IMG/VR virus record: IMGVR_UViG_3300044691_000591
Coordinates: 20,850-84,849 of that record
DNA: 64,000 nucleotides
Reading direction: 5' to 3' (one strand)
Origin: a virus
Shown: positions 10,839 to 53,734 of the stretch, piece by piece
Layout of the letters: each line of letters starts with the position of its first letter
Position numbering within the stretch: the stretch's first letter is position 1
Translations under genes and position numbers: made by a program
The notes under the pieces: model-generated
The model's input: only the letters and a program-made list of their open reading frames with translations
The model's database searches: none
Told to the model about the DNA's origin: nothing

Positions 10839-10849
10839 GTTGTGCCTCT

Positions 10850-13954: not shown

Positions 13955-16900
13955 TCAGCCCCCCACTACAGAGCGGTGCAGGAGTTCCTCGTGCGCGAGC
14001 GCATCCAGGACCGACTGCCGGGATGCGACCTCGCGGGTCGTCGCGTGGTACTCCAGGGTTCGCGGACCCCCGTTGGTGACCGTGGTGGCCGAGTGGGCGG
14101 CGCCGGGTGCGGCGGCCGTGCCGGAGACCAGCCCGGCCATCTGCCGGGCCATGCGCGCGGACACATCCGACGGGTACACCTGGGAGGGGCCGCCGGTGCG
14201 GATCAGTTCGGGGCCGCGTTCGCCGACCACTGAGAGGCCGCCGATCTGCGGGAAGCCGCCGTCGGCGTACCAGCCCAGCTGGAGTTCGTGGGCCCAGGCG
14301 TTGGCGGGGCTGCCGTAGCGCGACAGGATGTAGCCCAGTCCCCACTTCTCCTGCGTGGACGGGTTGGTGAGCCAGTCCAGTCCGGCCGTCGCCATCTTGG
14401 AGGGGGGCAGGGCCTGCGGGATGCCGTAGGCGCCCGAGGTGGGGTTGGTGGCCCGGTAGTTCCACCCGGACTCGCGGGTCCACAGCTGCTGCAGGGCGGG
14501 CCACTGGTCCATGCCCCAGCCGAACTGGGGCAGCATGGCCTGCGCCGCGGCCTGGGCGACCACGGGGGCTGCGCCGGTGGCCAGCCCCGGGCCGGACAGC
14601 TGGGCGATGCCGGGGACGCGGCCGATGCTCGTGTAGGCGCCCAGGCCCTCCTCGCGGACCACGGTGCCGGTGTGCGGGGCGTCGAGCATGGTGCCCGGCT
14701 TCACGTACATGCCCACGTGGTGCGCGGGCTGGCCGAAGAACACCAGGTCGCCCGGCTGCGCGGCGGCGGCCGACACGGGATTGGTGAACGACTGCTGCAC
14801 CTGGGAGGTGCGCGGGATCGCGATGTGCGGGCCGTTCTGGTAGGCGTACTGCATCAGCCCGGAGCAGTCGAAGCCGGTCGGGGACTCGCCGCCCCACAGG
14901 TACTGGACGCCCTTGAAGCCCTCGGCGACGTGCAGCGCGGACAGGCCGGCGCCGCCGGCGCTGGTGGCCTCCTTGCCGCGGATGAACGCGATGGCCTTGG
15001 TGATGGTGGTCTCGGGCAGCAGGCGGGCGCTGTCGCCCCAGGAGCCGGGTGCGTTGCCGCCCAGGGCGGCGTCGATGATGGAGCGGACCGGCTTGAAGGC
15101 GGCTTCGGCGAGGTCGGCGATGCCTTGGCGGGCCCAGTCGACGCCCTTGCTGACGACGTGTCCGACGTCCCCGGCCAGGCTGGAGGCGGCGCCCGCGATG
15201 CCGCTGAAGATGCCGCCGCCGTCGAAGCCCTGGAGGCCGAGTGCGTCGCGGATGGCCTGGACGCCTCCGGTGCGGGCGGCGGCGTTCATGGTGTGGACGT
15301 AGTCGGGGCCAACGGCTCGGGTCCATTCGGGGCGCATGATGGCCTCGCCGCCGCTCAGGGCGACGGGGCCGCTGACGGAGGGGACGAGGTGGACGTCGCG
15401 GCCCGGGGTGTAGCCGGGCATGATGCCGCCGCTGGCGAAGCCCTTGGGCAGGGCGACGTTGGGCAGGTTGCCGAGCCCGATCTTTCCGGCGGTGGCGTTC
15501 CAGACGGTGCGGATGCCCTGGTCGTAGACGGTCTGGACCAGGAACTTGATGGGCGCGGAGAAGAGCGCTTTGACGCCGCCCCAGATCAGGCCGATGCCGT
15601 CGCGCAGGAGTTTGAACGCGCCCTGGAAGACGGTCGCGAAGGTGTTGAAGCCGGTCTTGACGGCGCCCCAGGCGGCGGCGGCAACGGTTTTGATGCCGGA
15701 CCAGAGTCCGCCCCAGAGCGTTTCGACGACGCCCACGATGGTCGAGAAGATCGACTCGACGTGGTGCCAGAGGGTGGTGAACCAGCTGACGATGCCGTTG
15801 ACGATGTCGGGGATGATCGAGTGCCCGAGCAGGATGTCGAACAGGTGGGTGAACCAGGTGATGATGCTGGTCACCGCGTTGACGATCATGGTGACGAACC
15901 GGGTGATCCACGTGATCACCTTGACGATGATCGGGATCAGGAAGTTGATCGCCGCCGCCAGCACCTTCACGAGCACCCCGGCGACCGCCGCGACCACGGT
16001 GATCAGCGGGGTGAGCACGACCATCAGCAGGTTCAGCAGCGGGGTGAGCAGCCCGAGCACTGCGGTCATCAGCAGGCCGATCACCGGGACCAGGGGCATG
16101 AGCGCGGGGAGCAGGCGCACGAACGTGCCGACGATCAACGTCAGCACCGGTGCGATGATCTTCAGGGCGGTGCCGATGAGCAGGCCAAAAATGTTGCCGA
16201 TCATCGTCAGCACCGGAGCCAGCGGCGTCAGCACCGCGATCAGCAACTGAGCCAGCAGCGTCACGATGCCGGTGACCAGAGGGATCAACGACATCAGGAT
16301 CGGCAGCAGCGCACGCACAGCCGCAGCGAAGATCGTCGCGAACACCCCGGCAATCGCGGAGACCACCGCCAGCAGCGGCTTCAGCACAGGCATCAGCGCC
16401 GCCAGCATCCCCGCGATCAGCGAACCGACCAGGTTGACCACCGGGATCAGCGTGTTGATCACACTGGTCAGGGGTCCGACCAGGGCCGCGACCAGCTGAA
16501 CGATCACGCTGACCACCGCGGTGACCACCGGCGCCAGGGCCTTCACGATTGCGGTCAGCAGCGCACTGATGGGCGCGAGCAGCGGGGTGAGGGCCGAAAC
16601 CACCTGCACCGCACCCAGCAGCACCGTCTGCAGCACCGGCGCCAATCCCTTGATCAGCGGCAGCAGCGCCCCACCCAGCGCGACAGCCAGCTGCTTCAGC
16701 ACCGGCCCCAGCGCCACAGCGACCGCCGTGACCGCCGGTGCCAGCGCGGCCAGGAGCGGCAGCGCGGCCTGGATGAGCGACCCGAACACCCCGGCGATGC
16801 CCTTGCCCAGCGCCGCGAGCGCGCCGAAGATCTGCTTCAGGGCCGCCTGCACAGCAGGCATCGCCGAGATCTTCGCGATCTCCGCGACCGTCTGGCCCAG

Positions 16901-32098: not shown

Positions 32099-32731
32099 TC
32101 AGTGCCACGGTGCGGGGCCGGTCCGGGACGCCCAGGCGGCCAGGGCCTGCTCGTCGAACAGGCGCAGCCCGACGCGCCGGCCGAACGCGGCGGCCTGCTC
32201 GGTGAACGTGGACGTCGTCACCACTGCGGCGAGGTCTGCGCCGTGGATCTGCCGGTACGTGCCGTTGACCGCCTGCACCATCGGGGAGCGAACCGGGTTG
32301 CCGACGGCGTAGCGCTTGGCCTGGATCAGGATCCGGCGGCCGTCCGGGGTGGTGGCCAGTACGTCGGCGGCGAGGTCTCCTGCTCCGCCGACGACGGTGA
32401 CGTTGCGGCAGCCGTCGCGGCGGCACAGGTCGGCGAGGGCGTGCTCGAACTGGGTCGGGCTGAGCCGCCGGAAGTCCATGACGGGGCGCCGGCAGTAGGG
32501 CGCGATGGTGCGGCGCTGAGCGCGGTGCATCTTGATGTACACGAAGCCAATGGCGGTGGTGGCTGCGATTGCCGCAACGCAGATCATGATCTGCGGGTGC
32601 CGGGAGAGCCACAGTGCGGCGTCGAACAGGATCAGGGCGGCAATGATCAACATGGGGCCGGTGATCCGCTGGCGCTGTACGCGCCTGCGCAGTTGGGCTT
32701 TCGCCTGGCGCACGCGGAGAGGTGTGGTCAC
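32099..32731 (-). CDS. membrane-anchored Mrr-type restriction endonuclease (Mrr_cat)
   Basis: Two TMs, then LSPTQFEHALADL...GGAGDLAADV...ILIQAKRY...VVTTSTFT. Confidence 0.85.
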   Translation of the reverse strand: MTTPLRVRQAKAQLRRRVQRQRITGPMLIIAALILFDAALWLSRHPQIMICVAAIAATTAIGFVYIKMHRAQRRTIAPYCRRPVMDFRRLSPTQFEHALADLCRRDGCRNVTVVGGAGDLAADVLATTPDGRRILIQAKRYAVGNPVRSPMVQAVNGTYRQIHGADLAAVVTTSTFTEQAAAFGRRVGLRLFDEQALAAWASRTGPAPWH

Positions 32732-34995
32732 GACTGGCTCATCTCGGGGACAGGCAGCCCGTACTCGCCGCTGGCGGCCGGGTTGCGGAGGATGGTGCCG
32801 TCCTTGACCAGGCGGCTGACCGTGTTCTCGACCGTCTTGCGGGCGACACCGGACTGGTCCGTGATGGCGTCCAGGTGCAGGTAACCGACGTCCAGACCGA
32901 TCGGGTCGCGGTACTCGCCCAGGACCGTGAGGATCTTCTCCTGCGCCGTCGGCTCCTTCGCCGCGGCCGGCTTCGCCTGACCGGGCGTCCACTTCGCGGC
33001 GCCGTCCTCATCCTCGTCTTCGGCGGCTGGCCCGACGGGGACCAGCGCGATCTCGCCGCGGTCCTCCCACTCGGGCCAGTCGGCGGGAATGACGATCTGC
33101 TCCGGATCGAACAGGCCGGCGGCGGACTCCAGGATCCACAGGCGCATCATCTCGGCGCGGTCGTCGGGCCCGACGGTGTAGCCGACGCCGAACGTGCGGC
33201 TGGGGTCGTCGTCGGGGACCGTCGGGTCGTAGATCAGAGTGTCGTCCTCGTCGCTCTTCCAGAACGCCGGGATCTTGGCGGGGTCGACGCCCGCGAACGC
33301 GTCGGGCAGGTCGACCCGGTTCCTCTGGTCGCTGTCGGAGCGCAGCAGGATCAGGGCGCCGCCGTAGAACACGTTGTCGCGGATGGAGGTGTCCGAGCCC
33401 ATCTTGTCGAGGTTCAGGATCTGCCCGCACAGGATCAGGATCAGGCCCAGTGAGCGGCCCTGCTCGGCCAGGGCGGCGATGATGAATGCCGCCTCGGCCT
33501 TGTTGGTTGCCTTCTCGCCGAGGAGCTGGGCGAACTCGTCCAGGACCACGGCGGTGTAGGGCATGTCGGCGGTCGGGACGAAGTTCTTCATCCGCAGCCG
33601 CTGCGACTGCTCGACGCGGTGCAGGAGGAGGGCGTAGGCCACGCGCAGGGCGCCCATCGCACCGTCGATACCGCAGCCGGGGTAGGTGGCCATGTCCTCG
33701 ACGTCGGGGTTGCTGGAGCCCTTGGGGTCGGCGTAGATGATCGCGACCCGGTTGACGTGGTAGCTGAGGCACAGGAGCTGCAGCGCCCCGCCCTTCCCGG
33801 AGCCGGTCACCCCGGCGATCAGGACGTGCCGGGCGCCCATCCTGGTGTCGTACAGCTGCACGCGGGCAGGGCGGCCGGAGATGCCGGTACCCAGGTTCAC
33901 GAACCCGTTGGCGTTGGCGAGCAGCGTCTCGGGGCCAGGCAGGGGCTGGCCGGCTTCCAGGGGTGAGCGGTCCATGAGCCGGAGCTTGGCCCGGCGGGGG
34001 TTGTTCGTGGGTTCGACGGACGTCAGCAGGGTGGTGGTGCGAAGTGCTCCGGCGATGCGGTATGAGTCGGGGGCGGTGACGGCGTCGGTGTCCTCGTCGG
34101 CGACGACCCATGCGGCGATGCCACCGGTTGCAGGGTCGGGGACGATGCCCTCCAGGTGGGTGCCGGGCATGCAGCCGCCCTTGTGGCCCACACGCCGCAG
34201 CCACAGTGCCTCCAGGGCGCTGTACTCGGCCACGTCGACGGTCGGCGCGACCACGTCGACGTGGATGTGGCGAGAGCTGGTGTGCGGACCGTCAATGAGG
34301 TGGACCCGCGCCTCGGGGACGCCGTAGACCCCGGACACGGTCTCGGCGGTGACCGAGACGGGGCGGCCGGGCATCGAGTGGATCGTGCCCTCCCACGCCT
34401 CCGGGCTGTAGCCGGTCAGGGTGAGGTGCTGGCCGGGGTGCGCGCCGTCCTCGCTGGAGATCCAGTCGTGCCAGTACTGCAGGACGTCGCGCTCCGGCGT
34501 CGGCTCTGGGACTGGGGCGGCGGGCGCGCGGTAGGCGGCGACCGCGCGGGGCTTGCGCAGGACGCGGCGCAGCGCGAAGTGGATGTAGCCGGTCGCGGAC
34601 CACCAGGCCACCGACACAAAGCCGGCCACGGAGGGCAGCGTCATCCAGCCGGCGGCCAGGGAGTCGATTCCGGGCCAGCCGTACTGCGTCGCGGTGGCCG
34701 CCGCGGTGGCGGTCGCGATCGCGGAGACCAGGAACGGCTCGCGGTGGGCGCGCACGATGTCACCGCCCGGCAGGGCGTCCAAGTGCTCATCGGACAGCAG
34801 GTGCATGTAGTTCGCGCCGGCGGCCAGGGCGGGTACGGCCAGCAGGCAGCTGACGGTACTCGCGGCCTGACCGTCCAGCAGCGGCAGGGTCAGGGCGGTC
34901 GCCAGCGGGGCGGCGACCTGAGCCACGGCAAACCGCTTCTCGGCGGCAGGGTTCGGCAGCGCCTTGGCCGCGGGCGTGGTGTCGTTGGTGGTCAC
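32728..34995 (-). CDS. FtsK/SpoIIIE-family conjugal DNA translocase (Streptomyces TraB-like)
   Basis: N-terminal TMs; HVLIAGVTGSGKG Walker A; YADPKG; VVLDEFAQ Walker B; QGRSLG arginine finger; C-terminal winged helix. Confidence 0.88.
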   Translation of the reverse strand: MTTNDTTPAAKALPNPAAEKRFAVAQVAAPLATALTLPLLDGQAASTVSCLLAVPALAAGANYMHLLSDEHLDALPGGDIVRAHREPFLVSAIATATAAATATQYGWPGIDSLAAGWMTLPSVAGFVSVAWWSATGYIHFALRRVLRKPRAVAAYRAPAAPVPEPTPERDVLQYWHDWISSEDGAHPGQHLTLTGYSPEAWEGTIHSMPGRPVSVTAETVSGVYGVPEARVHLIDGPHTSSRHIHVDVVAPTVDVAEYSALEALWLRRVGHKGGCMPGTHLEGIVPDPATGGIAAWVVADEDTDAVTAPDSYRIAGALRTTTLLTSVEPTNNPRRAKLRLMDRSPLEAGQPLPGPETLLANANGFVNLGTGISGRPARVQLYDTRMGARHVLIAGVTGSGKGGALQLLCLSYHVNRVAIIYADPKGSSNPDVEDMATYPGCGIDGAMGALRVAYALLLHRVEQSQRLRMKNFVPTADMPYTAVVLDEFAQLLGEKATNKAEAAFIIAALAEQGRSLGLILILCGQILNLDKMGSDTSIRDNVFYGGALILLRSDSDQRNRVDLPDAFAGVDPAKIPAFWKSDEDDTLIYDPTVPDDDPSRTFGVGYTVGPDDRAEMMRLWILESAAGLFDPEQIVIPADWPEWEDRGEIALVPVGPAAEDEDEDGAAKWTPGQAKPAAAKEPTAQEKILTVLGEYRDPIGLDVGYLHLDAITDQSGVARKTVENTVSRLVKDGTILRNPAASGEYGLPVPEMSQS

Positions 34996-34999
34996 AGTC

Positions 35000-35368
35000 C
35001 TACTCCTGCCGGTACCAGGTGCGGTTGGCCATCTCGACGGGGGAGCGGTCGCGGGCTTCCTTGATGCCGCCGTGGGTGGTGACGGTCGCCTGCTCGGCGG
35101 CGACCGCCGCGCGGGATGCCTCGTCGGCGGCGTTGGCGTAGGCGAGCGCGGCCGTGGACACGCCCTGCATGATTCGCGAGACCTCGCGGGTCTCGGCAAC
35201 GGTCGCCGGATCGACCTTGAGGGCGGCGGTCTGCTCGGCGATGCGCCCGGTGTCCTTGGCCTGGGCGTCCATCGCGGAGGCCATCTTCTTGTGCCTCTGG
35301 GTGGCGCGCCGCACGTCCCGGGCCAGGGCCCGCGTCTCGCGCAGCAGTTCGCCATAGGTCAGTGCCAC
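35000..35368 (-). CDS. conjugation-associated helical protein
   Basis: All-alpha 122 aa just upstream of traB; HGGIKEARDRSP...RTWY tail. Confidence 0.7.
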   Translation of the reverse strand: MALTYGELLRETRALARDVRRATQRHKKMASAMDAQAKDTGRIAEQTAALKVDPATVAETREVSRIMQGVSTAALAYANAADEASRAAVAAEQATVTTHGGIKEARDRSPVEMANRTWYRQE

Positions 35369-43378: not shown

Positions 43379-43481
43379 GCGGGCAGCCTCTCACGCGATC
43401 TACCCCTGCAACCAACGACACGGGGCGAGTTCGCCGTATATACTTCTAACATCGCAGCACGCGAGTGACTGAAGGAAGCAA

Positions 43482-43709
43482 ATGCCTACGGAAGCAACGC
43501 GCCTGGTCGGAGACCCGGAAGACCTGCTCACCGCGCAGGAGGTCTCCGCGATCACCCGACTCAGGCCCCAGACCCTCGCCGACCACCGCTACAAGAAGGT
43601 CGGCATCCCCTACATCAAGCTCGGCACCAACCCGCGCGCGCCGGTCCGCTACCGCCGCCGGGACGTCGACGCCTACATGACCGACCCGCTCGCCGAGGCC
43701 AACGGCTAG
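43482..43709 (+). CDS. Cro/AlpA-like HTH_17 protein
   Basis: LLTAQEVSAITRLRPQTLADHR...GIPYIKLG...VRYRRRDV; divergent from the repressor. Confidence 0.85.
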   Translation: MPTEATRLVGDPEDLLTAQEVSAITRLRPQTLADHRYKKVGIPYIKLGTNPRAPVRYRRRDVDAYMTDPLAEANG

Positions 43710-43756
43710 GGCGACCGCGCAGACCTGTCCTGACGCGACGTCCGAGAGAGAAGCAA

Positions 43757-44647
43757 GTGAGCCTTGAAGCGATGGACTGGGTGTGGAATCACTCCCGCTC
43801 CAAAGGTGTCGGCCGCATGGTGATGCTGGCCCTCGCCGACAAGGCGCTGCCCGCGACGGCGGACTGCCGGGCCTACGGCTCCTACCGCTTCCTGGCACAG
43901 CGGGCGAACTGCACCCAAGGGGCGATCACTGAGGCGCTCGACGGACTGTATTCGCTGGGCGAGTTGGAATTGCTGCCGGAGAAGGGGCCGATGGGCGCGG
44001 CGACGTACCGGCTGCCGAAAGCGGTTGGCCATACCCGTCCCGTGCGCGGCAATCGCTCGGCTCACCCGAGCGATTCAGACGCGAAGGCTCGAAAGGAATC
44101 GCTCGGCTCAGCCGAGCAGCAGGTGCACGGCTCAGCCGTGCGATCTGAAGCCGAATCGCTCGGCTCAGCCGACCACAACACCACCACCCCACCAAAGACC
44201 ACCACCTCCGCGCCTACCGACCCGCCTGCCTCTGGTGACACCAAGGGAGGAGGTGGAGGAGACCAGCAACAGGAAGCCGAGGCCTTCCTCCAGTCGCTGC
44301 CTTCACCTTGGACGGCAGGACGGAAGACCGCCCGCGAGCTCGCCCCGCTGCTCCTGGAACGGACAGGCGAACAGGGCTGGCAACTGGACGCCGACCTCGC
44401 CGCGCAGCTGAGCAAGAACGCCACCGGCGTCAACCACCCCGCCTCCGTCCTGCGGGCCCGCATCGACGACCTCCCGAAGAAGCCCACCGCCAAAACCCGG
44501 GCCTCGCCATCACTCCCGCCTTGGTGCGGCCAGTGCGGCGACAAGGACCCGGCCGCCGAGACCGACGCCGCCCGGCGCTTCCACCACCTCAACGACGGCA
44601 GCAGCCAACGCTGCCACTGCCACCCCGCACACCAGAAAGCAGCCTGA
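43757..44647 (+). CDS. phage replication initiator (N-terminal wHTH)
   Basis: MSLEAMDWVWNHS...RMVMLALAD; internal iterons; coupled to dnaB. Confidence 0.8.
   Translation: MSLEAMDWVWNHSRSKGVGRMVMLALADKALPATADCRAYGSYRFLAQRANCTQGAITEALDGLYSLGELELLPEKGPMGAATYRLPKAVGHTRPVRGNRSAHPSDSDAKARKESLGSAEQQVHGSAVRSEAESLGSADHNTTTPPKTTTSAPTDPPASGDTKGGGGGDQQQEAEAFLQSLPSPWTAGRKTARELAPLLLERTGEQGWQLDADLAAQLSKNATGVNHPASVLRARIDDLPKKPTAKTRASPSLPPWCGQCGDKDPAAETDAARRFHHLNDGSSQRCHCHPAHQKAA
44051..44172. repeat. four iteron-like palindromes (putative ori)
   Basis: AATCGCTCGGCTCA(C/G)CCGA at 44051, 44097 and 44154; variant GCACGGCTCAGCCGTGC near 44125. Confidence 0.75.
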
Positions 44648-46014
44648 TGAACCGCGACGAAGCACCGCCCTACCCGGACGAACAGGAGCAGCAGCGCGGC
44701 GACCGAGTCCCCCCGTGCAACCTCCACGCCGAGCAGTGCGTGATCGGCGGCATGCTCCTCTCGAAGGAAGCCATCACCGAAGCCACCGAGATCATCGGCC
44801 CCGGCGACTACTACCGGCCCGCCCACGAGTTCATCCACCGCGCCGTCCTCGACGTGTACGGGCGCGGCGAACCGGCCGACAAGGTCACCGTCGCCGCCGA
44901 GCTGGAGAAGACCGGCCGCACCCGGGAAGCCGGCGGCCCGGACTACCTGAACCTGTGCCTGTCCGTCACCCCGTCAGCGGCGAATGCGGGCTGGTACGCG
45001 GAGGAGGTGCTGCGCACCGCGATCCTGCGCCGCATCATCGGCGCGGGCACGGAACTGATCGGGATCGGGTTCCAGCCCGGCGCGGGGACGGCGAACGAGG
45101 CCCTGGACCGTGCCGCCGCAACACTGCAGTCGCTCACGGCCACAGTGGGCATGTCGATGACCAGCCGCGAGAAGCCGCTCCGCGACGTCCTCGCCGCGAC
45201 GATGGACAACTACGACTCCGACGACGGCAACTACCTCCCGCTGCCCTACAAGGACCTGCGCATCAGGGTCCCGATGGAGCCCGGCGACTTCGCGGTCGTA
45301 GCCGCCACCCCCGGGACGGGCAAGACGACGATCCTCACCGACATGGCCCGCTGCCTGTCGATCAAGCACAACCGCAGGTCGTTCTTCGGCAGCATGGAGA
45401 TGCCTCACACCCAGATTGGCCAGCGCATCCTGTGCGCCGAAGCGCGCGTCGACCTGAACCGCTTTCGCACCCGGGCCCTCACCGAGGAAGACCGGCAGCG
45501 GGTCGACCAGACGCAGAAGCGGATCGAGAACTATCCGCTGGTGATCGACGACTCCACCGCCGTGCCGGTGTCGCGCATGCGTACCCGCCTGCGCCAGCTC
45601 CAGGCTGCAGGCGAACTGCCGGAGCTGTACATCGTGGACTACCTGCAGATCGCCAAGGCGGAGGCTGAGTCGAACGCGAACCGCACCATCCAGGTCGACC
45701 ACATCGCCCGCAGCCTGCGGAACCTGGCCATGGACTTCGGGATCGTCGTGGTGGCCGCAGCGCAGCTGAACCGGCAGACGACGTCGCGGGCCGACCGGGT
45801 GCCGCAACTGTCGGACCTCCGCGAATCCGGCGGCATCGAGCAGGCGTGCACGATCGCCCTGCTGCTGGACCGGCCGGAGGTCTACGAGAAGGAGACTCCG
45901 CGCGCGGGGGAGATGGACATTCACGTCGCCAAGAACCGCATGGGCAGCACGGGCCGGCTGACCGTGGCCTACCAGGGCCACTACTGCCGCGCCGTCGACA
46001 TGGCTGCGGACTGA
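44647..46014 (+). CDS. dnaB: replicative DNA helicase DnaB-like
   Basis: PPCNLHAEQCVIGGML, AATPGTGKT, SMEM, IVDYLQI, AQLNR, LSDLRESGGIEQ, VAKNRMG. Confidence 0.95.
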   Translation: MNRDEAPPYPDEQEQQRGDRVPPCNLHAEQCVIGGMLLSKEAITEATEIIGPGDYYRPAHEFIHRAVLDVYGRGEPADKVTVAAELEKTGRTREAGGPDYLNLCLSVTPSAANAGWYAEEVLRTAILRRIIGAGTELIGIGFQPGAGTANEALDRAAATLQSLTATVGMSMTSREKPLRDVLAATMDNYDSDDGNYLPLPYKDLRIRVPMEPGDFAVVAATPGTGKTTILTDMARCLSIKHNRRSFFGSMEMPHTQIGQRILCAEARVDLNRFRTRALTEEDRQRVDQTQKRIENYPLVIDDSTAVPVSRMRTRLRQLQAAGELPELYIVDYLQIAKAEAESNANRTIQVDHIARSLRNLAMDFGIVVVAAAQLNRQTTSRADRVPQLSDLRESGGIEQACTIALLLDRPEVYEKETPRAGEMDIHVAKNRMGSTGRLTVAYQGHYCRAVDMAAD

Positions 46015-46070
46015 ACCTGCAGCTCAGAGCCAATCTCGTCAATCTCGTCACTACCCCAAGGAGAACCACC

Positions 46071-46472
46071 ATGAGCCTCGCCATCCAGGCCGACGACATC
46101 ACCGCAGTCCTGCTCGCCGACGGCTGGCACAGCGTCAGCAGCGGATTCGACGTCGACGCCTACGAGTTCAAGCTCGGGAGCCTGCTGATCCACGGCGGCG
46201 GAACGAATGACGTCTGCGGTTCCGGCTTCGTCTTCACCGAGCCGGACGGTGTTCGCACCGCTGGCCCGCTCACGTCGATCCTCGCGGTGCGCCGCGGTGT
46301 CGCTTCGCCCAAGGCTGCCGACGGCACGGTCATCCCGGAGTGGTGCGGCGAGTGCGACGGCCCCGAGTTGGAGAAGCGGTGGGTGGACGTGCCGACAGGC
46401 ACCACTCGCCGCGCCGCGAAGCGCTGCCCGCGCTGCAACCCGCACGCCGCGAAGGATGCGACGCAGGGCTAG
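46071..46472 (+). CDS. hypothetical protein with C-terminal Zn ribbon
   Basis: RBS AAGGAG; WCGECD...RCPRCNP resembles the C-terminal tail of the initiator. Confidence 0.65.
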   Translation: MSLAIQADDITAVLLADGWHSVSSGFDVDAYEFKLGSLLIHGGGTNDVCGSGFVFTEPDGVRTAGPLTSILAVRRGVASPKAADGTVIPEWCGECDGPELEKRWVDVPTGTTRRAAKRCPRCNPHAAKDATQG

Positions 46473-46909
46473 GCAGCCGTCGGCAACTGGGCGGGGCGAT
46501 TCACCACCCAGTGCTCGTGGACTGTGATGAGACCCCGGCAGCCATGGATGTACAGCCAGTCGTCGCTCCACTGCACGGGATAGATCTGGTCGGGCACGAG
46601 GCCCAGGACGCCTTCCCGTGCCGGGTCGAAAGGCAGTTCCACGGTGTGCGAGACGAAGCCGGCCGGGTCCAGTTCGAGATCCAATAGCAGCGGCTCCGGG
46701 ACGTCGTCCAGTGGGAACCAGCTCACGGCTACGACGTGCTGGGCCGCGATCTGCGTCAGCACGTTGCCGCCCTGCTCCTCGACCATGAGGTTGTCGGGCT
46801 CGGTTCGCGCGTTGAAGTCGGTCGCCCAGGGGTGGCTCGCAGCGAGCAGATGTTTCCCGTACTCCGTCATGTGCAGTCGTGCGGGCTGCGGGATCTGGTT
46901 GGCGACCAT
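46469..46909 (-). CDS. hypothetical protein
   Basis: RBS GGAGG; 146 aa. Confidence 0.6.
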   Translation of the reverse strand: MVANQIPQPARLHMTEYGKHLLAASHPWATDFNARTEPDNLMVEEQGGNVLTQIAAQHVVAVSWFPLDDVPEPLLLDLELDPAGFVSHTVELPFDPAREGVLGLVPDQIYPVQWSDDWLYIHGCRGLITVHEHWVVNRPAQLPTAA

Positions 46910-46966
46910 GGGAACCTCCCACCTTCCAGCCTGCGCGCATGTCCCGCCCGCCGCCTGTCGGGCTGG

Positions 46967-47146
46967 TCAGCCGTCGGGGCCGGTCGGTGGCTTGGCCGGC
47001 GTGGAGACGTAGCGGTGGAGCGCGGTGAGGATCACGTCGGTGAGCGTGGTGTCCTCGGCTGCGGCCTTCTCCTTCGCGGCAGCCCAGAGGCCGTCGGGGA
47101 CGCGGATGTTGCGCAGCTTGGTCTTGCCGGTGGCGGGCCGGGCCAT
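46967..47146 (-). CDS. ribbon-helix-helix regulator
   Basis: MARPATGKTKLRNIRVPDGLWAAAKEKA...TLTDVI. Confidence 0.8.
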   Translation of the reverse strand: MARPATGKTKLRNIRVPDGLWAAAKEKAAAEDTTLTDVILTALHRYVSTPAKPPTGPDG

Positions 47147-47166
47147 GGTGAAGGCTCCTCGAATCT

Positions 47167-47247
47167 GTAGGTGCATAAACCTAGCATCACCTGCCGGAAG
47201 CGGCTTGACAAGGGTGCATAGTGAGTGCGATCGTAGGTACATAAACC
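47167..47247. promoter_or_regulatory. divergent promoter with 15-bp direct-repeat operators
   Basis: GTAGGTGCATAAACC 47167-47181 and GTAGGTACATAAACC 47233-47247 flank TTGACA at 47205. Confidence 0.75.
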
Positions 47248-47270
47248 CATAGCCAGCAGGGGAGACGGTC

Positions 47271-47525
47271 ATGAACAGCATCGAACTCCGCGAGTCGTCC
47301 GACCCGGACCGCGTTGCAGCCCTCGCCCTGACCGTCGAAGACATCGCCTTCCAGCTCGCGCAGATCGCAGCCCAGGCCAACGACGACGAGGTAGCCCACG
47401 GCATGGAGGACAACCTCCGCGACACCGTTCTCCGCGCCATCGCCGCCGGACACCCGGATGCGATGCTGCTCGCTGCCGCCGCGCTCCGCAGCGAGGACAT
47501 CGACTTCGCCCGCTACTACGCCTGA
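47271..47525 (+). CDS. phage hypothetical protein
   Basis: DDEVAHGMED...LRAIA...DFARYYA phage motif. Confidence 0.7.
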   Translation: MNSIELRESSDPDRVAALALTVEDIAFQLAQIAAQANDDEVAHGMEDNLRDTVLRAIAAGHPDAMLLAAAALRSEDIDFARYYA

Positions 47526-47562
47526 CGTCCCGTCTCATCCCACCCACCCGAAGGAGAACCGC

Positions 47563-47820
47563 ATGGGCACAGGCCCGGATCACTACCGCGAGGCTGAGCG
47601 TCTGCTCGCCGGGCGCACCCTGCCCGCCACCGAGGACGGCACCGAGACGTTCTGGGTGCCCGCGACCGCCGACGACATTGCCGCCGCGCAGGCCCACGCG
47701 ACGCTCGCACTCGCGGCGGCGACCGCCCTGCCCCTCCAGCGCATGATCCTGGTCGACCCGATCAAGGCGTGGTCCGCCGCCATTGACGGGGCCGAGTCCA
47801 CCTCTGAGGACAGCGAATGA
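47563..47820 (+). CDS. phage hypothetical protein
   Basis: GPDHYREAERLL...AQAHATLALAAATA. Confidence 0.7.
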   Translation: MGTGPDHYREAERLLAGRTLPATEDGTETFWVPATADDIAAAQAHATLALAAATALPLQRMILVDPIKAWSAAIDGAESTSEDSE

Positions 47821-48038
47821 CCGAGCGCAAGGTGCCGCCGCCCGCCGACCCGTACACCCAGCACAACGCCCGGTTCCGCGGCGGCCGGCTCAACCACCGC
47901 GTCAAGGACGCCGAGGACTACGCCCTCATGGAAGCCGCCTGCGGCAAGACCGGCTACCAGGCCACCGGCTATCCGGGCCTGGCGCCCAGGCCCTGCACCG
48001 GCTGCTACCCGGGCGCGAAGAAGACGCCCACCACCTGA
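47817..48038 (+). CDS. hypothetical protein
   Basis: ATGA-coupled; H/C motifs. Confidence 0.55.
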   Translation: MTERKVPPPADPYTQHNARFRGGRLNHRVKDAEDYALMEAACGKTGYQATGYPGLAPRPCTGCYPGAKKTPTT

Positions 48039-48103
48039 CCCCGTCCCGCCGTGGCCCGATGGGGATCATCCGCCAGGATTGGGCCAGCAACGCAAGGAGC
48101 ACC

Positions 48104-48877
48104 GTGGACACCCTCACTGCCCCCGACGCCATCGCCGCACACCTCCAAGCCGCCTGGCAGCAGCCCGGCGCCGGACACCGCAGCTACAGCACCAGCGTGC
48201 AGCGCCCCATCGCCGGATCCGCTGAGGACCAGATCACCCCGGATGGCGTCGAGAATCCGTACTGGGACATCGTGCGCTGGCTGCCCGCCGCACCGTCCTG
48301 GTATGCCGGCTCCCTGCTGCAGCCCGAAGGATTTGCCACGAGTCTGGGCGACCTGAAGGCCATCGAGACCCTGGGCGTGTTCCGCAACGCCCTCGCGACC
48401 CGCTACGCCTGGTCGATCATCACGCCCGGGGACGTCACCTGGATCACCGGTGTCCTCGACGGGCGCGGCGTCGTCGAGGTCGGAGCCGGGACCGGCTACT
48501 GGGCCTGGCAACTGGAGCAGGCCGGTGTCTCCATGGCGGCCTACGACCCGTACCCGCCCGCCGCCGACAACACGTACTGCAAGCACGGCCCCTACACCAC
48601 CCTGCTGCCCGCCGGCGCGGAGGCTGCGGCCGAGCACCCCGACCGGGCGCTGCTCATAGTCTGGCCGCCCTACGGCGGAGAGCACGCCGAACACGCCCTC
48701 GCGGTCTACAAGGGCGACCTCCTCATCTACGCCGGGGAGGGCACGGGCGGCTGCACCGCCGACGACGGCTTCTACGAGGCCCTCGAAGCCGAGTGGACCG
48801 AGATCAGCGAAGCACCCCAGCACGTCACCTGGTCGGGCATCCACTGCCGGCTCGCCGCCTACCGGCGCACCACCTGA
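48104..48877 (+). CDS. class I SAM methyltransferase-like protein
   Basis: VVEVGAGTGYWA motif I; LLIVWPPY; RBS AAGGAG. Confidence 0.75.
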   Translation: MDTLTAPDAIAAHLQAAWQQPGAGHRSYSTSVQRPIAGSAEDQITPDGVENPYWDIVRWLPAAPSWYAGSLLQPEGFATSLGDLKAIETLGVFRNALATRYAWSIITPGDVTWITGVLDGRGVVEVGAGTGYWAWQLEQAGVSMAAYDPYPPAADNTYCKHGPYTTLLPAGAEAAAEHPDRALLIVWPPYGGEHAEHALAVYKGDLLIYAGEGTGGCTADDGFYEALEAEWTEISEAPQHVTWSGIHCRLAAYRRTT

Positions 48878-48889
48878 TCGGAGACCGCC

Positions 48890-49309
48890 ATGTCCAGTCC
48901 GGCCATCATCGTCGACCTCGACGGGACGCTCGCCCTGATCGTCGACCGGTCGCCGTACGACGCGGACGAGTGCGGCCTGGACACGGTCAACGAGGCTGTG
49001 CGCACGGTCATGGGTTGGGCGCAGGCCGCCGGGTACGCCATCGTCCTGGTGTCCGGTCGCGGCCTGAAGCCGAGTCACCGGACCTACACGGAGCAGTGGC
49101 TGACGTGGAACGGCATCGACTGGGACGAGCTCCACATGCGCCGGCCGGGCGACCAGCGTCCGGACGACGTGGTGAAGGCCGAGATCTACCGCGACCGGAT
49201 CGAGGACAACCACACCGTGCTGTTCGTGATGGACGACCGTCGCGCGGTGGTCCGGATGTGGCGCGAGGAGTTCGGGCTGACCGTATTCCAGGTCGCCGAC
49301 CGTATCTGA
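48890..49309 (+). CDS. HAD phosphatase (T4 PseT 3'-phosphatase-like)
   Basis: IVDLDGTLA, VSGR, LHMR..GDQRPDDVVK, MDDR. Confidence 0.88.
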   Translation: MSSPAIIVDLDGTLALIVDRSPYDADECGLDTVNEAVRTVMGWAQAAGYAIVLVSGRGLKPSHRTYTEQWLTWNGIDWDELHMRRPGDQRPDDVVKAEIYRDRIEDNHTVLFVMDDRRAVVRMWREEFGLTVFQVADRI

Positions 49310-49355
49310 CCCTGCTGCCTGGCGTGCTGCCGGGCGGCCCACGAAGGAGACCCGC

Positions 49356-49799
49356 ATGTCTGACCCGACCCCTGAGCAGATCCTGACCGTCCTCAACGAC
49401 GGCGAGCCCGTCGACTACGCCGCGCTGGAGTGGTGTGTGATCACCGGCGGCTACGCGCAGGACATCGACCGGTACGGCAACCTCGTCGAGCGCGACACGG
49501 TGAAGTACTGGCCGTTCGAGCAGGGCGAACTACTGCTCCTCAATGAGAACGGCCGTGAACCGTTCGGCGAGGGCCGCAAGCCCGGCAAGTGGTCCGTGAC
49601 CGCGTTCGACACCCGCGACTACGAGCAGGCCCTCGCCCTGTCCCAGCTAATCAAGGCCAACCCGGACGAGCGCGGCATGTGGGAGTGGGCCGACGGGGCG
49701 TGGACGCGCTGTGTGGGCCCGATGCCGCGCAGGCACGACGGGTTGGCGTGGCTCGGCAAGCAGCTCGACAACGAGGAGCGGGCCGGGTGGACGCAGTAG
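49356..49799 (+). CDS. hypothetical protein
   Basis: RBS AAGGAG. Confidence 0.65.
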   Translation: MSDPTPEQILTVLNDGEPVDYAALEWCVITGGYAQDIDRYGNLVERDTVKYWPFEQGELLLLNENGREPFGEGRKPGKWSVTAFDTRDYEQALALSQLIKANPDERGMWEWADGAWTRCVGPMPRRHDGLAWLGKQLDNEERAGWTQ

Positions 49800-49947
49800 C
49801 CCTCCGCCTGCCTAGCCCCCGTCCGGGCGGCGGCATCACCCGCGCTGACGTGCACGATTCCCGCTGATCGACATCCGCGATCGGCTGCGAACGATCACCA
49901 CAAAGCAGCACAATTAGGCGTATACAGCAACGAATTGAGACACCCTC

Positions 49948-50175
49948 ATGGGCTGGTCCGACACCCCCAACGACATCTTCGACCCCGTCGCTCGCGCACT
50001 CATCGAAGCCCGCGCCACCGACGGGCTGAAGCGCAACGTCCTCGGAGTCCTCATCCAACGGCTCCGGTACGAGGACTGGGACACCGCAGACGACTCGCTG
50101 AAGGTCTTCGCCCACGACCCTGGGGTCGTTGCCGCGTTCGCCGACAACGGCATCCGGCGGGGCACCGATGAGTAG
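49948..50175 (+). CDS. hypothetical protein
   Basis: First gene after an AT-rich promoter-like stretch. Confidence 0.65.
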   Translation: MGWSDTPNDIFDPVARALIEARATDGLKRNVLGVLIQRLRYEDWDTADDSLKVFAHDPGVVAAFADNGIRRGTDE

Positions 50176-50608
50176 CGCCGCGAAAGTCCTCTCCGACCGC
50201 ATCGGGCGCGCACTCGCCCTCGGGCTCGCCGACCGCCACCAGGATGCCTGGGCAGAGATCAAGGCCGCAGTCGCTCCGGATTCGGTCGCGATGTACGCGA
50301 CCGTCTGCGGGCTCGCTGAGGTTGCCGTCGCCGACCGGGTAGCGGCCAATCCTGGCGGCGTCTTCGGCCTTGCCGTAAAGCACGAGGGGCGGCCGGCCGG
50401 AGCCCAGGACGCGCCAGCTCCGCAGCGGCTCGCGATGCAGATCATGGCCGCACAGGCTAATCGCGACTTCGACACGACCAAGGCCCTGTTCAAGGCCGCC
50501 ATGAACATGGACCCGGCTTCGGTGGCCGATGCGACGCTGATCCTTTACCAGGCGGCGCTGAAGACCAGCCGGGAACGCATCGCCCGTGGCGACCGGAGGA
50601 CCCCGTGA
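50168..50608 (+). CDS. hypothetical protein
   Basis: Overlaps both neighbours. Confidence 0.6.
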   Translation: MSSAAKVLSDRIGRALALGLADRHQDAWAEIKAAVAPDSVAMYATVCGLAEVAVADRVAANPGGVFGLAVKHEGRPAGAQDAPAPQRLAMQIMAAQANRDFDTTKALFKAAMNMDPASVADATLILYQAALKTSRERIARGDRRTP

Positions 50609-51042
50609 CCCGCCCCTCCCGTTGCGGCAACGACCCGCGCACCGTGCTCCTGCCCGGCGACCGGGAGGCCGTCGAGGAGTTCGAGGCGTACCTGAAGGAG
50701 AAGCGCGACGTGCAGCCGACCGTGGTGTGCATCTGCGGCAGCATGCGGTTCGGGGACGCCATGGCCGAGGCCGCACGCAACGAGTCGATCGCGGGCCGCA
50801 TCGTCGTGATGCCGCACGTGAACATGAAGACCTGGGGCGGGGCCGCCGAGGTCGGCGAGGAGATCAAGGAGCGGCTCGACAGTCTCCACCGGGCCAAGAT
50901 CCGCATGGCCCACGAGGTGCTGGTCGTCGGCGACTACATCGGCCAGTCCACCACGGCGGAGATCAAGTACGCGCGGTACATGGGCATGCCCGTGCGGTTC
51001 ACCCACCCCGACGTCGACCCCAACAGAAAGGCCGACCGGTGA
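50605..51042 (+). CDS. nucleoside 2-deoxyribosyltransferase-like small Rossmannoid protein
   Basis: VVCICGSMRF...LHRAKIRMAHEVLVV..YIGQSTTAEIKYA. Confidence 0.65.
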   Translation: MTRPSRCGNDPRTVLLPGDREAVEEFEAYLKEKRDVQPTVVCICGSMRFGDAMAEAARNESIAGRIVVMPHVNMKTWGGAAEVGEEIKERLDSLHRAKIRMAHEVLVVGDYIGQSTTAEIKYARYMGMPVRFTHPDVDPNRKADR

Positions 51043-51275
51043 CCTTCGCCGACTTCGTCCAGCCCGGCAATTACAACCGCTCCGACGGCAACACGGTCTG
51101 CGGCCACAACATCGTGGTCGGGCCCGGTGCGTGCGTGGAGTGCCACGCGCTGACTGGCGAGCACCAGGAGAGCGGCTGCACCTGCGACCTCGACGCCTAC
51201 GACGCCCAGCAGGCGGAGAGCTGGGCTGAGGCGTCCATGGAGCGCGCCAGGGCTGCACGGGGGACTGCCCGGTGA
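51039..51275 (+). CDS. Cys/His-containing hypothetical protein
   Basis: GTGA-coupled. Confidence 0.55.
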   Translation: MTFADFVQPGNYNRSDGNTVCGHNIVVGPGACVECHALTGEHQESGCTCDLDAYDAQQAESWAEASMERARAARGTAR

Positions 51276-51454
51276 GCGCCATCGACGACTTCGACGCGCC
51301 CGGCTTCCAGGCGTTGTGCGCCCGATTCGGGATCGAGGCCACGCCCGTCACCGACGCGTTCGGGCGGATCGACTTCCGGCTGGACCGGAAGAACATGGAG
51401 AAGATCGCGGCGCTGAAGCGGCTCGCCGACGGACAACGCACCAAGGAGAACTGA
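51272..51454 (+). CDS. hypothetical protein
   Basis: GTGA-coupled, 60 aa. Confidence 0.55.
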   Translation: MSAIDDFDAPGFQALCARFGIEATPVTDAFGRIDFRLDRKNMEKIAALKRLADGQRTKEN

Positions 51455-51615
51455 TGGACACCGCCGACCTTGAGTCGTGGATTCCGGCACTGGCCGGCTT
51501 GAGCCTGGGCGAGGTGGGCGAACTGGACGAGGCCGCGCTCGGTCCGGCCGTCGCCAGCATGCTCGCCCGGGTCGACCGGCCACTGGCGACCGTCGCCGGA
51601 TCGAGCGGGAGCTGA
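51454..51615 (+). CDS. FxsA-leader-like peptide (53 aa) lacking the FxS core
   Basis: RBS AAGGAG, TGATG overlap; MDTADLESWIPALAGLSLGEVGELDEAALGPAVASMLARVDRPLATVAGSSGS. Confidence 0.55.
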   Translation: MDTADLESWIPALAGLSLGEVGELDEAALGPAVASMLARVDRPLATVAGSSGS

Positions 51616-51617
51616 CG

Positions 51618-52226
51618 ATGACCCCGACGACCCGCTACCTGTGCCCGCTGAACTGCGGCTGGCACCACGACGAAGACCCCGCCGACGTGCCACCGCAGGT
51701 CACCGTCGACGCCGACACGCTCGCGTCCGGCGACCTCGGAGCCGTCATCAGCGCGGTCGCCTTCGCGCACGCCAAGGCCGCGCTGGAGCATGTGGAGAGC
51801 ACCGTGAAGGCGCACCTGGAGACGCACCCGCTGATCGAGTGGGCGCAGAAGGTCGCATCGCTGCAGCGGGATCTCGCCGGGGCCGAGGCCGACGTGCAGC
51901 TCGCGATGGACGAGTGGGGCAAGTCCGATAAGCACCACGCCGAGAAGAGCGTCGCCGCAGCGGCCGAGCGGGGTGCCTGGGGTACGACCCGGATGCGGGT
52001 CTGGAACGCTGCCTTCATCGCCGACGCGGAAGACGTCACGGACTGGCAGCGCGGCTACCGGGCCTGCTCCGAGCGGGTCGTGGCGGCGCTGGACGAGCCG
52101 GTCGACATGGTGATCTACGACTTCAACACGCGGCCGTTGCCTACCCCCGCAACGCCGTCCCGGACAACGCCGGACAATCCCGTGACCAGCAGCGATGCGG
52201 CGGACAAAGGCGGTGAGCAGCCGTGA
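51618..52226 (+). CDS. hypothetical protein
   Basis: YLCPLNCGWHHD N-terminus. Confidence 0.65.
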   Translation: MTPTTRYLCPLNCGWHHDEDPADVPPQVTVDADTLASGDLGAVISAVAFAHAKAALEHVESTVKAHLETHPLIEWAQKVASLQRDLAGAEADVQLAMDEWGKSDKHHAEKSVAAAAERGAWGTTRMRVWNAAFIADAEDVTDWQRGYRACSERVVAALDEPVDMVIYDFNTRPLPTPATPSRTTPDNPVTSSDAADKGGEQP

Positions 52227-52624
52227 GCGTGTGGGGCACGATCTGGTCGGCGGATGACGACGAGCACACCAACCAGTGCAGCCGGTGGCCGCCGCCGATC
52301 AAGACCGGCCCGCACACCTGGAGCTCCACCCTCGACGACTCCCGGCCGTGCGACTGCGGCCAGCCCGGTGCGCCGATCATCTACCAGCCCTCGCATATCC
52401 TGCCCGCGCCGACCGACCAGCGCGGCGGCCACGTATCCCTCGCTGAGGTGCCCGGCCACGTCACCCGCGACGGGCGCGACGACGGCCCCGACGACGCGTG
52501 GGGTGTGTGGCCATGGCTACGCCTGTCCGTGGGCCAGGAGGACGCCGTGCTCGACGAGGCCCTCGTGCGCAGCCTGCGGGACGCCCTCGACGGCTGGCTG
52601 ACGGCGCGCGGCGGCCAGCCGTGA
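52223..52624 (+). CDS. hypothetical protein
   Basis: GTGA-coupled. Confidence 0.6.
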   Translation: MSVWGTIWSADDDEHTNQCSRWPPPIKTGPHTWSSTLDDSRPCDCGQPGAPIIYQPSHILPAPTDQRGGHVSLAEVPGHVTRDGRDDGPDDAWGVWPWLRLSVGQEDAVLDEALVRSLRDALDGWLTARGGQP

Positions 52625-52956
52625 CTGGGGCCGTGCGCGCCCTGCTGACGCCGTTCTACTGGCTGGCCGTCGCCCTGCTGTGGCTGATAGCCATGCCGTG
52701 GCCGCTGGCGCTGCTGGCAGCCCACCTGCCGTGGTGGGGAATGTACCCGGCCTGTGCCGCACTGGGCGTGGGCTACGGCGCCGCCGCCGTGTATGCCAGG
52801 GGCCCGCTGCTGAACCCGCCCGCCCGCTACCTGGCCGGGCTGATCGAGGACCTGGCTGCGGAGTGGCACAAGGCCACCGCGGCCCCAACACTTCCGCCAC
52901 CCGGCGGGGAGATCGACGGGCAGACCCGCCCGGCAACTGAGAGGCTTCACCCATGA
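52621..52956 (+). CDS. membrane protein
   Basis: Two to three hydrophobic segments; coupled on both sides. Confidence 0.6.
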   Translation: MTGAVRALLTPFYWLAVALLWLIAMPWPLALLAAHLPWWGMYPACAALGVGYGAAAVYARGPLLNPPARYLAGLIEDLAAEWHKATAAPTLPPPGGEIDGQTRPATERLHP

Positions 52957-53126
52957 ACGAGACCCAGACCGCGAGCGGCACGAACTTCCCGACCGGCCGG
53001 CGCAAGCGCATGTCGCTGGACCAGGCGTGCAAGGCGGTGGAGGCCAGCTCTTCGCCGGTCGTGAGCCGGATCCTGCCGAGTGGGACCGACCAGGTGGAGG
53101 TCGCTGCCTTCAACTCGTCGATCTAG
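52953..53126 (+). CDS. fxsA: FxSxx-COOH RiPP precursor-like peptide (57 aa)
   Basis: Own translation: MNETQTASGTNFPTGRRKRMSLDQACKAVEASSSPVVSRILPSGTDQVEVAAFNSSI*; ATGA overlap with the upstream gene; GAGAGG RBS. Confidence 0.8.
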   Translation: MNETQTASGTNFPTGRRKRMSLDQACKAVEASSSPVVSRILPSGTDQVEVAAFNSSI

Positions 53127-53158
53127 ACATGTACACGCCAACGCTCCCCGGTGCACCC

Positions 53159-53314
53159 ATGCCTGGGGAGCGTCTCGCTGTGCCGTGCAGCCGCTGCGAG
53201 CGACTGTTGACGGACCCGCTCTCTCGCTCCCTGCGGCTCGGACCGGAGTGCAGATCTGCCGAGTTCGCGACGCGTGGCTTCGAGGTGGAGCAGGACGTGC
53301 TGCCGGGCCTGTGA
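53159..53314 (+). CDS. DUF6011-like zinc finger peptide
   Basis: CSRCERLLTDPLSRSLRLGPEC. Confidence 0.7.
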   Translation: MPGERLAVPCSRCERLLTDPLSRSLRLGPECRSAEFATRGFEVEQDVLPGL

Positions 53315-53352
53315 CCTGCACCCCACCGCTGGCACGCTTCACCCCTCCGACG

Positions 53353-53373
53353 CATAATCGAACGCATGTCCGA
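53353..53373 (+). promoter_or_regulatory. -10 box plus LexA (SOS) box overlapping a leaderless start
   Basis: CATAAT 53353-53358; TCGAAC-GCAT-GTCCGA, one mismatch from the actinobacterial TCGAAC-N4-GTTCGA. Confidence 0.7.
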
Positions 53374-53734
53374 ACGCCGCCCTGGGATCCCGCCTCACAA
53401 CTGGCCCCGCCAGCTCCCACCCCCGCACGACCCCGAACTGCCCCTGCGCGTCATCGGCTGGATCCGCGAGATCCTGCCCTCCGAGGAATGGCGCGTCGAA
53501 GAACTCCGCAGCCACCCATGGGAACTCGTCACCATGGGCATGACCGCCATCGACCGCATGATCCAGAGCCTGCGCGACTCCCACCGCGAAACCGTGGACC
53601 TCTACGCCGGCATCCTCGGCGACGACGACACCCGCCGACTCCTCGACGCCCACGCCCGCGAAGCCGCCCGCCTCACCGAGCTGCGGGTGCAGCTGTCCGA
53701 GGTCTCCAGCGCACTGTTCACGCGCCCGCAGTAG
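53366..53734 (+). CDS. conserved actinobacterial hypothetical protein, probably SOS-induced
   Basis: WPRQLPPP...W..E.L...L..HP pattern; LexA box at the start. Confidence 0.65.
   Translation: MSERRPGIPPHNWPRQLPPPHDPELPLRVIGWIREILPSEEWRVEELRSHPWELVTMGMTAIDRMIQSLRDSHRETVDLYAGILGDDDTRRLLDAHAREAARLTELRVQLSEVSSALFTRPQ

Follow-up and report, generated by a model that had tools for sequence, protein, structure and literature searches.

Orphan precursor homologs of two Fxs-related types in one operon of a temperate soil phage: candidate mimics of host RiPP substrates

The FxSxx-COOH peptides (FxsA; TIGR04268 and NF040585) are RiPP precursors of about 57-62 aa. Their leader contains a conserved Leu/acidic helix region and an RxLP motif, and the peptide ends in F-x-S-x-x-COOH after V-A-A/G. 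The corresponding maturases are found in TIGR04269 (FxsB) and TIGR04267, and the FxsB gene normally adjoins that of its precursor. Fxs-type peptide-processing modules have been predicted to be conflict systems, with the peptide acting as toxin or signal (VMAP-ternary/peptide-processing conflict systems; Kaur, Burroughs, Iyer, Aravind; eLife 2020, PMC7159879). In the passages of that study covered here, the architecture comprises a small FxSxx peptide, an rSAM-SPASM protein, an HExxH protein, the TIR-like FxsC and an NTPase with TPRs; the same passages deal with cellular loci only and do not mention phage-borne orphan peptides. The enzymology of fused rSAM/HExxH proteins (cyclophane formation and beta-hydroxylation) and of stand-alone HExxH enzymes has also been published (PMC10114670, PMC12636437), and the chemistry of the aKG-HExxH enzymes is reviewed in PMC12636437, which cites Morishita et al., Nat Chem 2024. 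While the chemistry of the Fxs triceptides is solved, their biological role has so far been restricted to a predicted membership in conflict systems of multicellular actinobacteria. Two further groups of systems are relevant for comparison. Phage antitoxin or ligand mimics, e.g. T4 Dmd and phage pseudo-ToxI, hold abortive-infection systems off, and in the RRNPP family receptor and peptide are normally encoded next to each other.

The element described here is an IMG/VR record of 84,849 bp from soil metagenomes with an estimated completeness of about 94%. The window, i.e. the whole stretch of DNA that was presented for analysis (64,000 nucleotides), corresponds to bases 20850-84849 of this record. 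It is a siphovirus by its gene content: a tape measure protein with an NlpC/P60 domain, a Gp37-like tail protein, a large terminase (60% identical to those of Streptomyces phages), an SPP1-type portal protein and DnaB. A large serine recombinase, RecT/YqaJ and XRE regulators are encoded in the 20.8 kb outside the window, from which it follows that the phage is temperate. The late genes include one for a GT-B glycosyltransferase (window 3610-4659, + strand), and an FtsK/SpoIIIE-family protein of 875 aa (Pfam match) is encoded on the opposite strand (window 32731-35355). tRNA genes, sought for host inference, were not found in the phage. What appears to be new, as far as sequence comparison goes, is a phage-borne orphan variant of the known FxsA family, with two precursor types in one operon (Table 1).

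Table 1. Features of the phage element, with the tandem genes of another viral record. Positions refer to the window unless they are prefixed by a record or locus (G000 is the complete record).
Feature	Position	Strand	Basis or remark
Rightward replication/early-type operon holding both peptide genes	43482..53734	+	gene calls
DnaB	44308-46014	+	Pfam match; within replication-type operon
ORF53, second orphan precursor-like peptide, aKG-HExxH-associated type	51454..51615	+	frame analysis, homologs
Small hydrophobic protein, about 111 aa, coupled upstream of 57-aa ORF	52621..52956	+	frame analysis
57-aa orphan FxsA-type precursor homolog	52953..53126	+	GC3, HMMs, leader alignment, homologs
DUF6011 gene, directly downstream of 57-aa ORF	53129..53314	+	PF19474 E 2e-9
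RecT/YqaJ	G000 9426-11512		outside window
Large serine recombinase	G000 14862-16442		Resolvase, Recombinase, Zn-ribbon domains; outside window
XRE/HTH regulator, 410-466 aa, beside serine integrase	G000:18405-19805		model, homologs; outside window
Tandem FxsA-like genes	L140:1259-1632 (G004; same in G002)		no FxsB in 91-kb record

Both peptide genes are located in a rightward operon whose early timing is inferred from its gene content. The 57-aa ORF is the sixth member of a tight chain of short overlapping or abutting genes (51272-53314, sliding frame analysis). It had been described in the initial annotation as an ORF with an RBS and coupled through ATGA to its upstream gene, ending in an exact F-x-S-x-x C-terminus after VAA, and its coordinates bear this out: its start codon shares bases with the TGA that ends the upstream ORF (ATGA at 52953-52956), and an RBS-like GAGAGG lies 8 nt 5' of it. 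The GC3 of the ORF is 0.95 in a genome of 70% GC. The encoded peptide consists of a leader with a basic patch, SLDQ and RILP, followed by the core VAAFNSSI-COOH. The whole record contains 1040 stop-to-stop frames with a length of 40 aa or more, and of these it is the only one with an F-x-S-x-x-COOH end. In other assemblies two full-length homologs were found (P0002 and P0005, with identities of 81% and 52%), and in both the N-terminus, one Cys, RxLP and the F-[NQ]-S-S-I end are kept; across this three-member family the F-x-S core and RxLP are invariant. The 57-aa ORF is confirmed as a real gene. Two long repetitive proteins from the representative search (P0003 and P0004) were rejected as repeat-inflated false matches. 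Neither the peptide nor the surrounding 6-kb region has a match among the cultured phages of INPHARED, and a profile of the three-member family returned no related loci among the viral contigs or genome contigs searched.

The upstream gene, whose putative GTG start was placed at 52621 on the basis of a GTGA overlap, has a frame-1 GC3 of about 0.9 over 52630-52810. Its product contains one or more hydrophobic segments at residues about 4-37 and has no match in Pfam, PHROG or NCBIfam. At the head of the operon, next to the XRE repressor gene, a promoter-like site is found at 43415-43444; apart from this site, a scan for sigma-70 promoters and terminators found no more than expected by chance.

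Only two NCBIfam models match the 57-aa peptide, both specifically and both below cutoff: NF040585 (23.7 bits, E 5e-5, residues 24-57; cutoff 75) and TIGR04268 (14.8 bits, E 0.026; cutoff 28). Scoring against TIGR04268 had been suggested as a check, and by its cutoff the peptide does not pass. However, the same holds for most genuine members. When ten FxsA with an adjacent FxsB were scored for calibration, six failed both curated cutoffs and only four passed any; their TIGR04268 scores range from 19.3 to 35.4 bits, the phage peptide scoring lowest. The curated cutoff is a poor test of FxsA membership because most genuine FxsA tested miss it.

The leader was also compared by itself. Without its last 8 residues, the phage peptide still scores 71 against the FxsA of genome G500, compared to 22±4.4 for shuffled sequences, none of which (0 of 1000) reached this value; 22 of 46 residues are identical between the two peptides (~48%). 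An HMM of Streptacidiphilus FxsA, made from seven precursors that end in FQSSI, FNSSI, FSSSI or FGSSI and were not picked by the phage core, matches the phage peptide over 47 residues (56.5 bits, E 9e-16). An earlier leader-only comparison, with an HMM of AAFNSSI-type leaders taken mostly from Kitasatospora and Micromonospora, had given 5-6.5 bits, no better than shuffles. This null result stemmed from the reference leaders chosen and did not hold up with the Streptacidiphilus precursors: the similarity of the phage leader is significant against leaders of that genus and not against those of the Kitasatospora/Micromonospora type. A similarity limited to the last five residues, which would have counted against the proposal, is not what was found. 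Judged by its sequence, the 57-aa peptide is a genuine full-length FxsA homolog and not a five-residue coincidence.

The phage peptide resembles FxsA in its length, in the Leu/acidic helix region and RxLP of its leader, and in its end V-x-V-A-A-F-N-S-S-I-COOH, which is identical to that of more than 100 actinomycete precursors. It differs in that it is encoded by a tailed temperate phage, falls under both curated cutoffs and displays a phage-specific N-terminus with a Cys that is invariant in the phage family. It also differs in the lack of a maturase, FxsC or FxSxx-type TPR gene, near or far. Instead of FxsB, the DUF6011 gene follows the 57-aa ORF and occupies the position that FxsB has in bacterial loci. 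When the entire record (84,849 bp) was searched with HMMs for FxsB (TIGR04269), aKG-HExxH (TIGR04267), FxsC (TIGR04276) and FxSxx-TPR (NF040586), no match was obtained, and the 20.8 kb beyond the window, where a cognate fxsB might have been located, contain none by the TIGR04269 search. The claim of the initial annotation that no radical SAM, HEXXH or TPR gene is present can be extended to the entire record as far as the Fxs partners are concerned; for TPRs in a wider sense it holds for the window but not for the phage, as an HTH protein with a predicted TPR-like fold is encoded outside the window. The peptides are orphans in a near-complete record, of which the missing ~6% could hold more genes.

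The second precursor-like gene, ORF53, which the initial annotation had missed, encodes 53 aa and is located 1.3 kb upstream of the 57-aa ORF in the same coupled operon. It has a GC3 of 0.87, an AAGGAG RBS and a TGATG overlap, and its product ends in ATVAGSSGS-COOH. In its homologs (P0006-P0008) the C-terminus ARVDRPLAT[VI]AGS[NS]GS is the best-conserved part; P0006 carries the precomputed annotation PF27839. The only NCBIfam match of ORF53 is to the leader part of TIGR04268 (E 0.027, below cutoff). The possibility that it is an FxsA with a replaced core was considered and rejected (2.9 bits on the AAFNSSI-type HMM, hhalign probability 9.8%). Instead, a search of Streptomycetaceae genomes with an ORF53 profile retrieved related bacterial peptides from G503 (E 7e-22) and G520 (E 3.5e-12), in which both the leader and the C-terminus are as in ORF53; the G520 peptide ends with the identical nine residues. 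These peptides adjoin aKG-HExxH peptide beta-hydroxylases of ~490 aa (TIGR04267, 134-167 bits vs a cutoff of 40), as well as FxSxx-system TPR proteins (NF040586, about 886 bits). A remoter relative in G338 has a GFNSS core and is followed by a genuine FxsB.

By homology to these peptides, ORF53 belongs to a sister precursor type that in bacteria is served by a stand-alone hydroxylase. It shares with the stand-alone aKG-HExxH precursors the leader (ESW[IL]P ... MLARVDRP) and the AGS[NS]GS end, and it is not a cyclophane substrate since it lacks an aromatic residue. In contrast to its bacterial relatives, ORF53 is not adjacent to an HExxH enzyme, and with no TIGR04267 enzyme in the whole phage record it is an orphan too. 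Precursors of this type are found in only 3-4 of the 23 Streptacidiphilus genomes, and no ORF53-type gene was detected in other IMG/VR phage records. Two candidates in the search were discarded: the match in L204 is spurious, lying inside a longer frame, and that in L206 is too near a contig end to be called orphan. The orientation of the bacterial genes varies. In G520 (C13:22140-25295) the ORF53-type gene (-, 1411-1656) and the TIGR04267 gene (+, 19-1482) appear convergent with an overlap of ~70 nt, and in G503 and other loci the hydroxylase is located downstream of the peptide on the same strand.

The bacterial counterparts of the 57-aa peptide are widespread. The DNA pattern for AAFNSSI-stop occurs in more than 120 actinomycete genomes, mainly of Kitasatospora, Micromonospora and Streptosporangiaceae, and in 87 of 95 such loci an ORF of ~780 aa with CxxxCxxC begins 3-80 nt after the FxsA stop. 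This ORF is FxsB, with scores of 535-586 bits for five genomes; the Kitasatospora protein additionally carries a fused aKG-HExxH hydroxylase domain. The closest relationships point to Streptacidiphilus, the single genus to which G520, G503, G411 and G010 (Streptacidiphilus sp. MAP5-3) belong. FxsB scores above cutoff in all 23 Streptacidiphilus genomes, with 1-3 copies each, and the phage-family profile matches 15 of the 23, the best matches lying directly upstream of FxsB. The closest named homolog of the phage HTH regulator, which is part of the basis for the host assignment, is likewise from this genus (Streptacidiphilus sp. N1-12, 73% identity). The likely host is Streptacidiphilus or a close relative; a close prophage was not found in the genus, where the best portal identity is 43%.

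Whether such hosts carry fxs loci had been put forward as a check, and complete loci do occur in the likely host genus. In G500, G456 and G520, the three genomes in which gene order was inspected, the genes for FxsA, FxsB-HExxH, FxsC (TIGR04276) and NTPase-TPR (NF040586, more than 1000 bits) are found in this order on one strand within ~9 kb, and G520 possesses both target systems, the FxsA type and the ORF53 type. A match to PDC-M28B, a candidate family of PADLOC, was obtained with the NTPase region at the N-terminus of the TPR protein from G500 (E 1e-22). This arrangement corresponds to the conflict-system architecture described in the passages covered of PMC7159879.

The peptides might also act alone or on non-Fxs targets, their family resemblance reflecting origin only. 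This would fit with the modest identity (~48%) of the phage leader to the nearest host precursor, with the phage-specific invariant Cys and N-terminus, and with the coupling of the 57-aa ORF to a small membrane protein. However, the parts that are invariant in the phage (RxLP and V-x-V/I-A-A/S-F-x-S-S-I) are precisely those conserved in the bacterial substrates, and the presence of two precursor types of related host systems in a single operon would be difficult to account for if those systems played no part. We consider an Fxs-independent function to be unlikely.

Orphan FxsA-like genes were also found in further, unrelated phage records. Four IMG/VR records (61, 66, 91 and 97 kb, one of them 96% complete) contain FxsA-like ORFs and no FxsB, and one of the peptides passes TIGR04268 with 29.5 bits. 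Two near-identical records (G004 and G002) encode FxsA-like genes in tandem, ending in VASFQSSV and VAAFNSSI. Apart from this pair, the orphan-bearing records are unrelated at the nucleotide level, both to each other and to the phage studied here. The combination of two precursor types was seen in none of these four phages. A full-text literature search, whose coverage extends to few subscription papers, yielded no description of phage-encoded orphan FxsA-type precursors. Seven IMG/VR contigs (L006, L008-L011, L015 and L016) with an identical 57-aa frame ending in GAAFNSSI were treated as a pattern coincidence, because this frame is unlike FxsA elsewhere and the one that was tested (G005) has no TIGR04268 match. 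The GAAFNSSI frame may represent a gene conserved in an unrelated group of viruses.

The reading that we favor, and to which we give slightly less than an even chance, is that captured host precursors are matured by host enzymes and then act on the Fxs NTPase-TPR/TIR system, keeping it from firing. Two precursor genes would have been acquired by the phage from its actinomycete hosts, with Streptacidiphilus as the most likely source, and kept without their enzymes. In the host, FxsA is modified by the fused FxsB, a radical-SAM/SPASM cyclophane synthase with an aKG-HExxH beta-hydroxylase. Upon infection or induction both peptides would be produced from the replication-type operon and would enter the host maturation enzymes, as suggested by the conservation of leader and core. 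The matured peptides would subsequently act on the Fxs NTPase-TPR/FxsC (TIR-like) system that is served by those enzymes. The most likely effect is that this system is kept from firing, either because the phage supplies the ligand once host synthesis stops or because the enzymes or the sensor are occupied. As the phage core is identical to host cores, a matured product would probably equal the host's own peptide. By this sequence identity a supply of ligand would fit better than a dead-end decoy; the peptide could also trigger the system. The proposed logic is that of T4 Dmd and pseudo-ToxI: defence is triggered when a labile host component is lost, and the phage makes an early product that replaces or imitates this component. 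By analogy, the mimic would differ from those in being a RiPP precursor that needs host enzymes to mature.

The idea of a substrate mimic, already raised in the initial annotation, has gained from the follow-up a genuine FxsA homolog, its orphan state, likely hosts with Fxs loci and recurrence in other phages; binding to the maturase was less clearly indicated. When the host FxsB rSAM domain and the phage peptide were predicted as a complex, the support was weak (score 0.40, best control 0.00). The mark of 0.40 is reached by 58 of 80 solved complexes and by 2 of 110 mismatches; at 0.60 or less, however, both mismatches reach it and only 7 of the 80 solved complexes do. At least 59% of contacts are shared between the runs, and the partner pLDDT is 46-48. 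A like complex (ChlB with peptide) has been solved, so that the pass may reflect likeness only.

The temperate lifestyle allows for two other roles. In the first, the extra precursors would be cargo of lysogenic conversion that primes or retunes the host Fxs system for the lysogen, e.g. to exclude other phages. A core identical to host cores would suit such a function, and one of the records with tandem FxsA-like copies is classed by IMG/VR as a provirus. The peptide genes are, however, embedded in a long replication-type operon with its promoter by the XRE repressor gene rather than in a separate moron cassette, and operons of this type would normally be silent in lysogens. This role seems improbable.

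In the second, the peptides would be matured by the host and sensed by a phage receptor, to give an arbitrium-like signal for the lysis-lysogeny decision or induction. Such a role was suggested by the XRE/HTH regulator beside the serine integrase, which the initial annotation had missed. A confident model of its 410-aa form (pLDDT 89.8) displays an HTH together with TPR-like repeats, and its best PDB matches are RRNPP receptors (PlcR/PapR, PrgX, ComR, Rgg2 and the Rap protein of phage phi3T), albeit weak ones (E 6e-4 to 1e-2, TM 0.2-0.5). Judged from this model, a signalling function would be possible: the phage is temperate, with a serine integrase, and its small peptide genes and putative HTH-TPR-like regulator recall arbitrium and RRNPP systems. 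In RRNPP systems, however, an adjacent propeptide with an export signal is found, and the phage presents neither feature. In the record, ~54 kb separate the regulator from the two peptide genes, no candidate propeptide gene lies next to the regulator, and neither peptide has a hydrophobic N-terminal signal segment. Moreover, the regulator family is common in Streptomyces chromosomes (55-60% identity), and the peptide family stems from a host RiPP system. The likelihood of a phage signal is rated as low.

If mimicry by host-matured precursors is correct, it would represent a counter-defence class that depends on the post-translational enzymes of the host, i.e. a new anti-defence principle, and it would provide the first biological role for Fxs triceptides. 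Phages of filamentous actinomycetes might then more generally use orphan RiPP precursors, matured by host radical-SAM/HExxH enzymes, to silence or hijack STAND-NTPase/TIR conflict systems; this generalization is rated as less likely than not. The precursor-only phage genes could serve as natural perturbation reagents and point to a host peptide pathway that phages need to touch. Small orphan 'RiPP precursor' ORFs in viromes should in that case not be dismissed as annotation noise.

Variants of both genes are present in other soil runs. In run X4, ORF53 carries an in-frame insertion of 3 nt. Both genes are covered by short contigs from run X3, with 3 differences for ORF53 and, over 165 nt, 6 for the 57-aa gene; these contigs are separate pieces and do not imply one phage carrying both. 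It could be argued that the ORFs are non-functional hitch-hikers or chance ORFs, as both are short and score below the curated HMM cutoffs. Their GC3 values, the intact homologs of the two genes at 52-96% identity, the in-frame indel in ORF53, the recurrence in unrelated phages and the occurrence of the motif in a single frame of the record all speak against this, and such an explanation is very improbable.

A further X3 contig, derived from a related phage in another soil sample, joins position 50182 straight to 50611. It lacks the intervening 428 bp (50183-50610), which make up most of a 159-aa ORF at 50129-50608.
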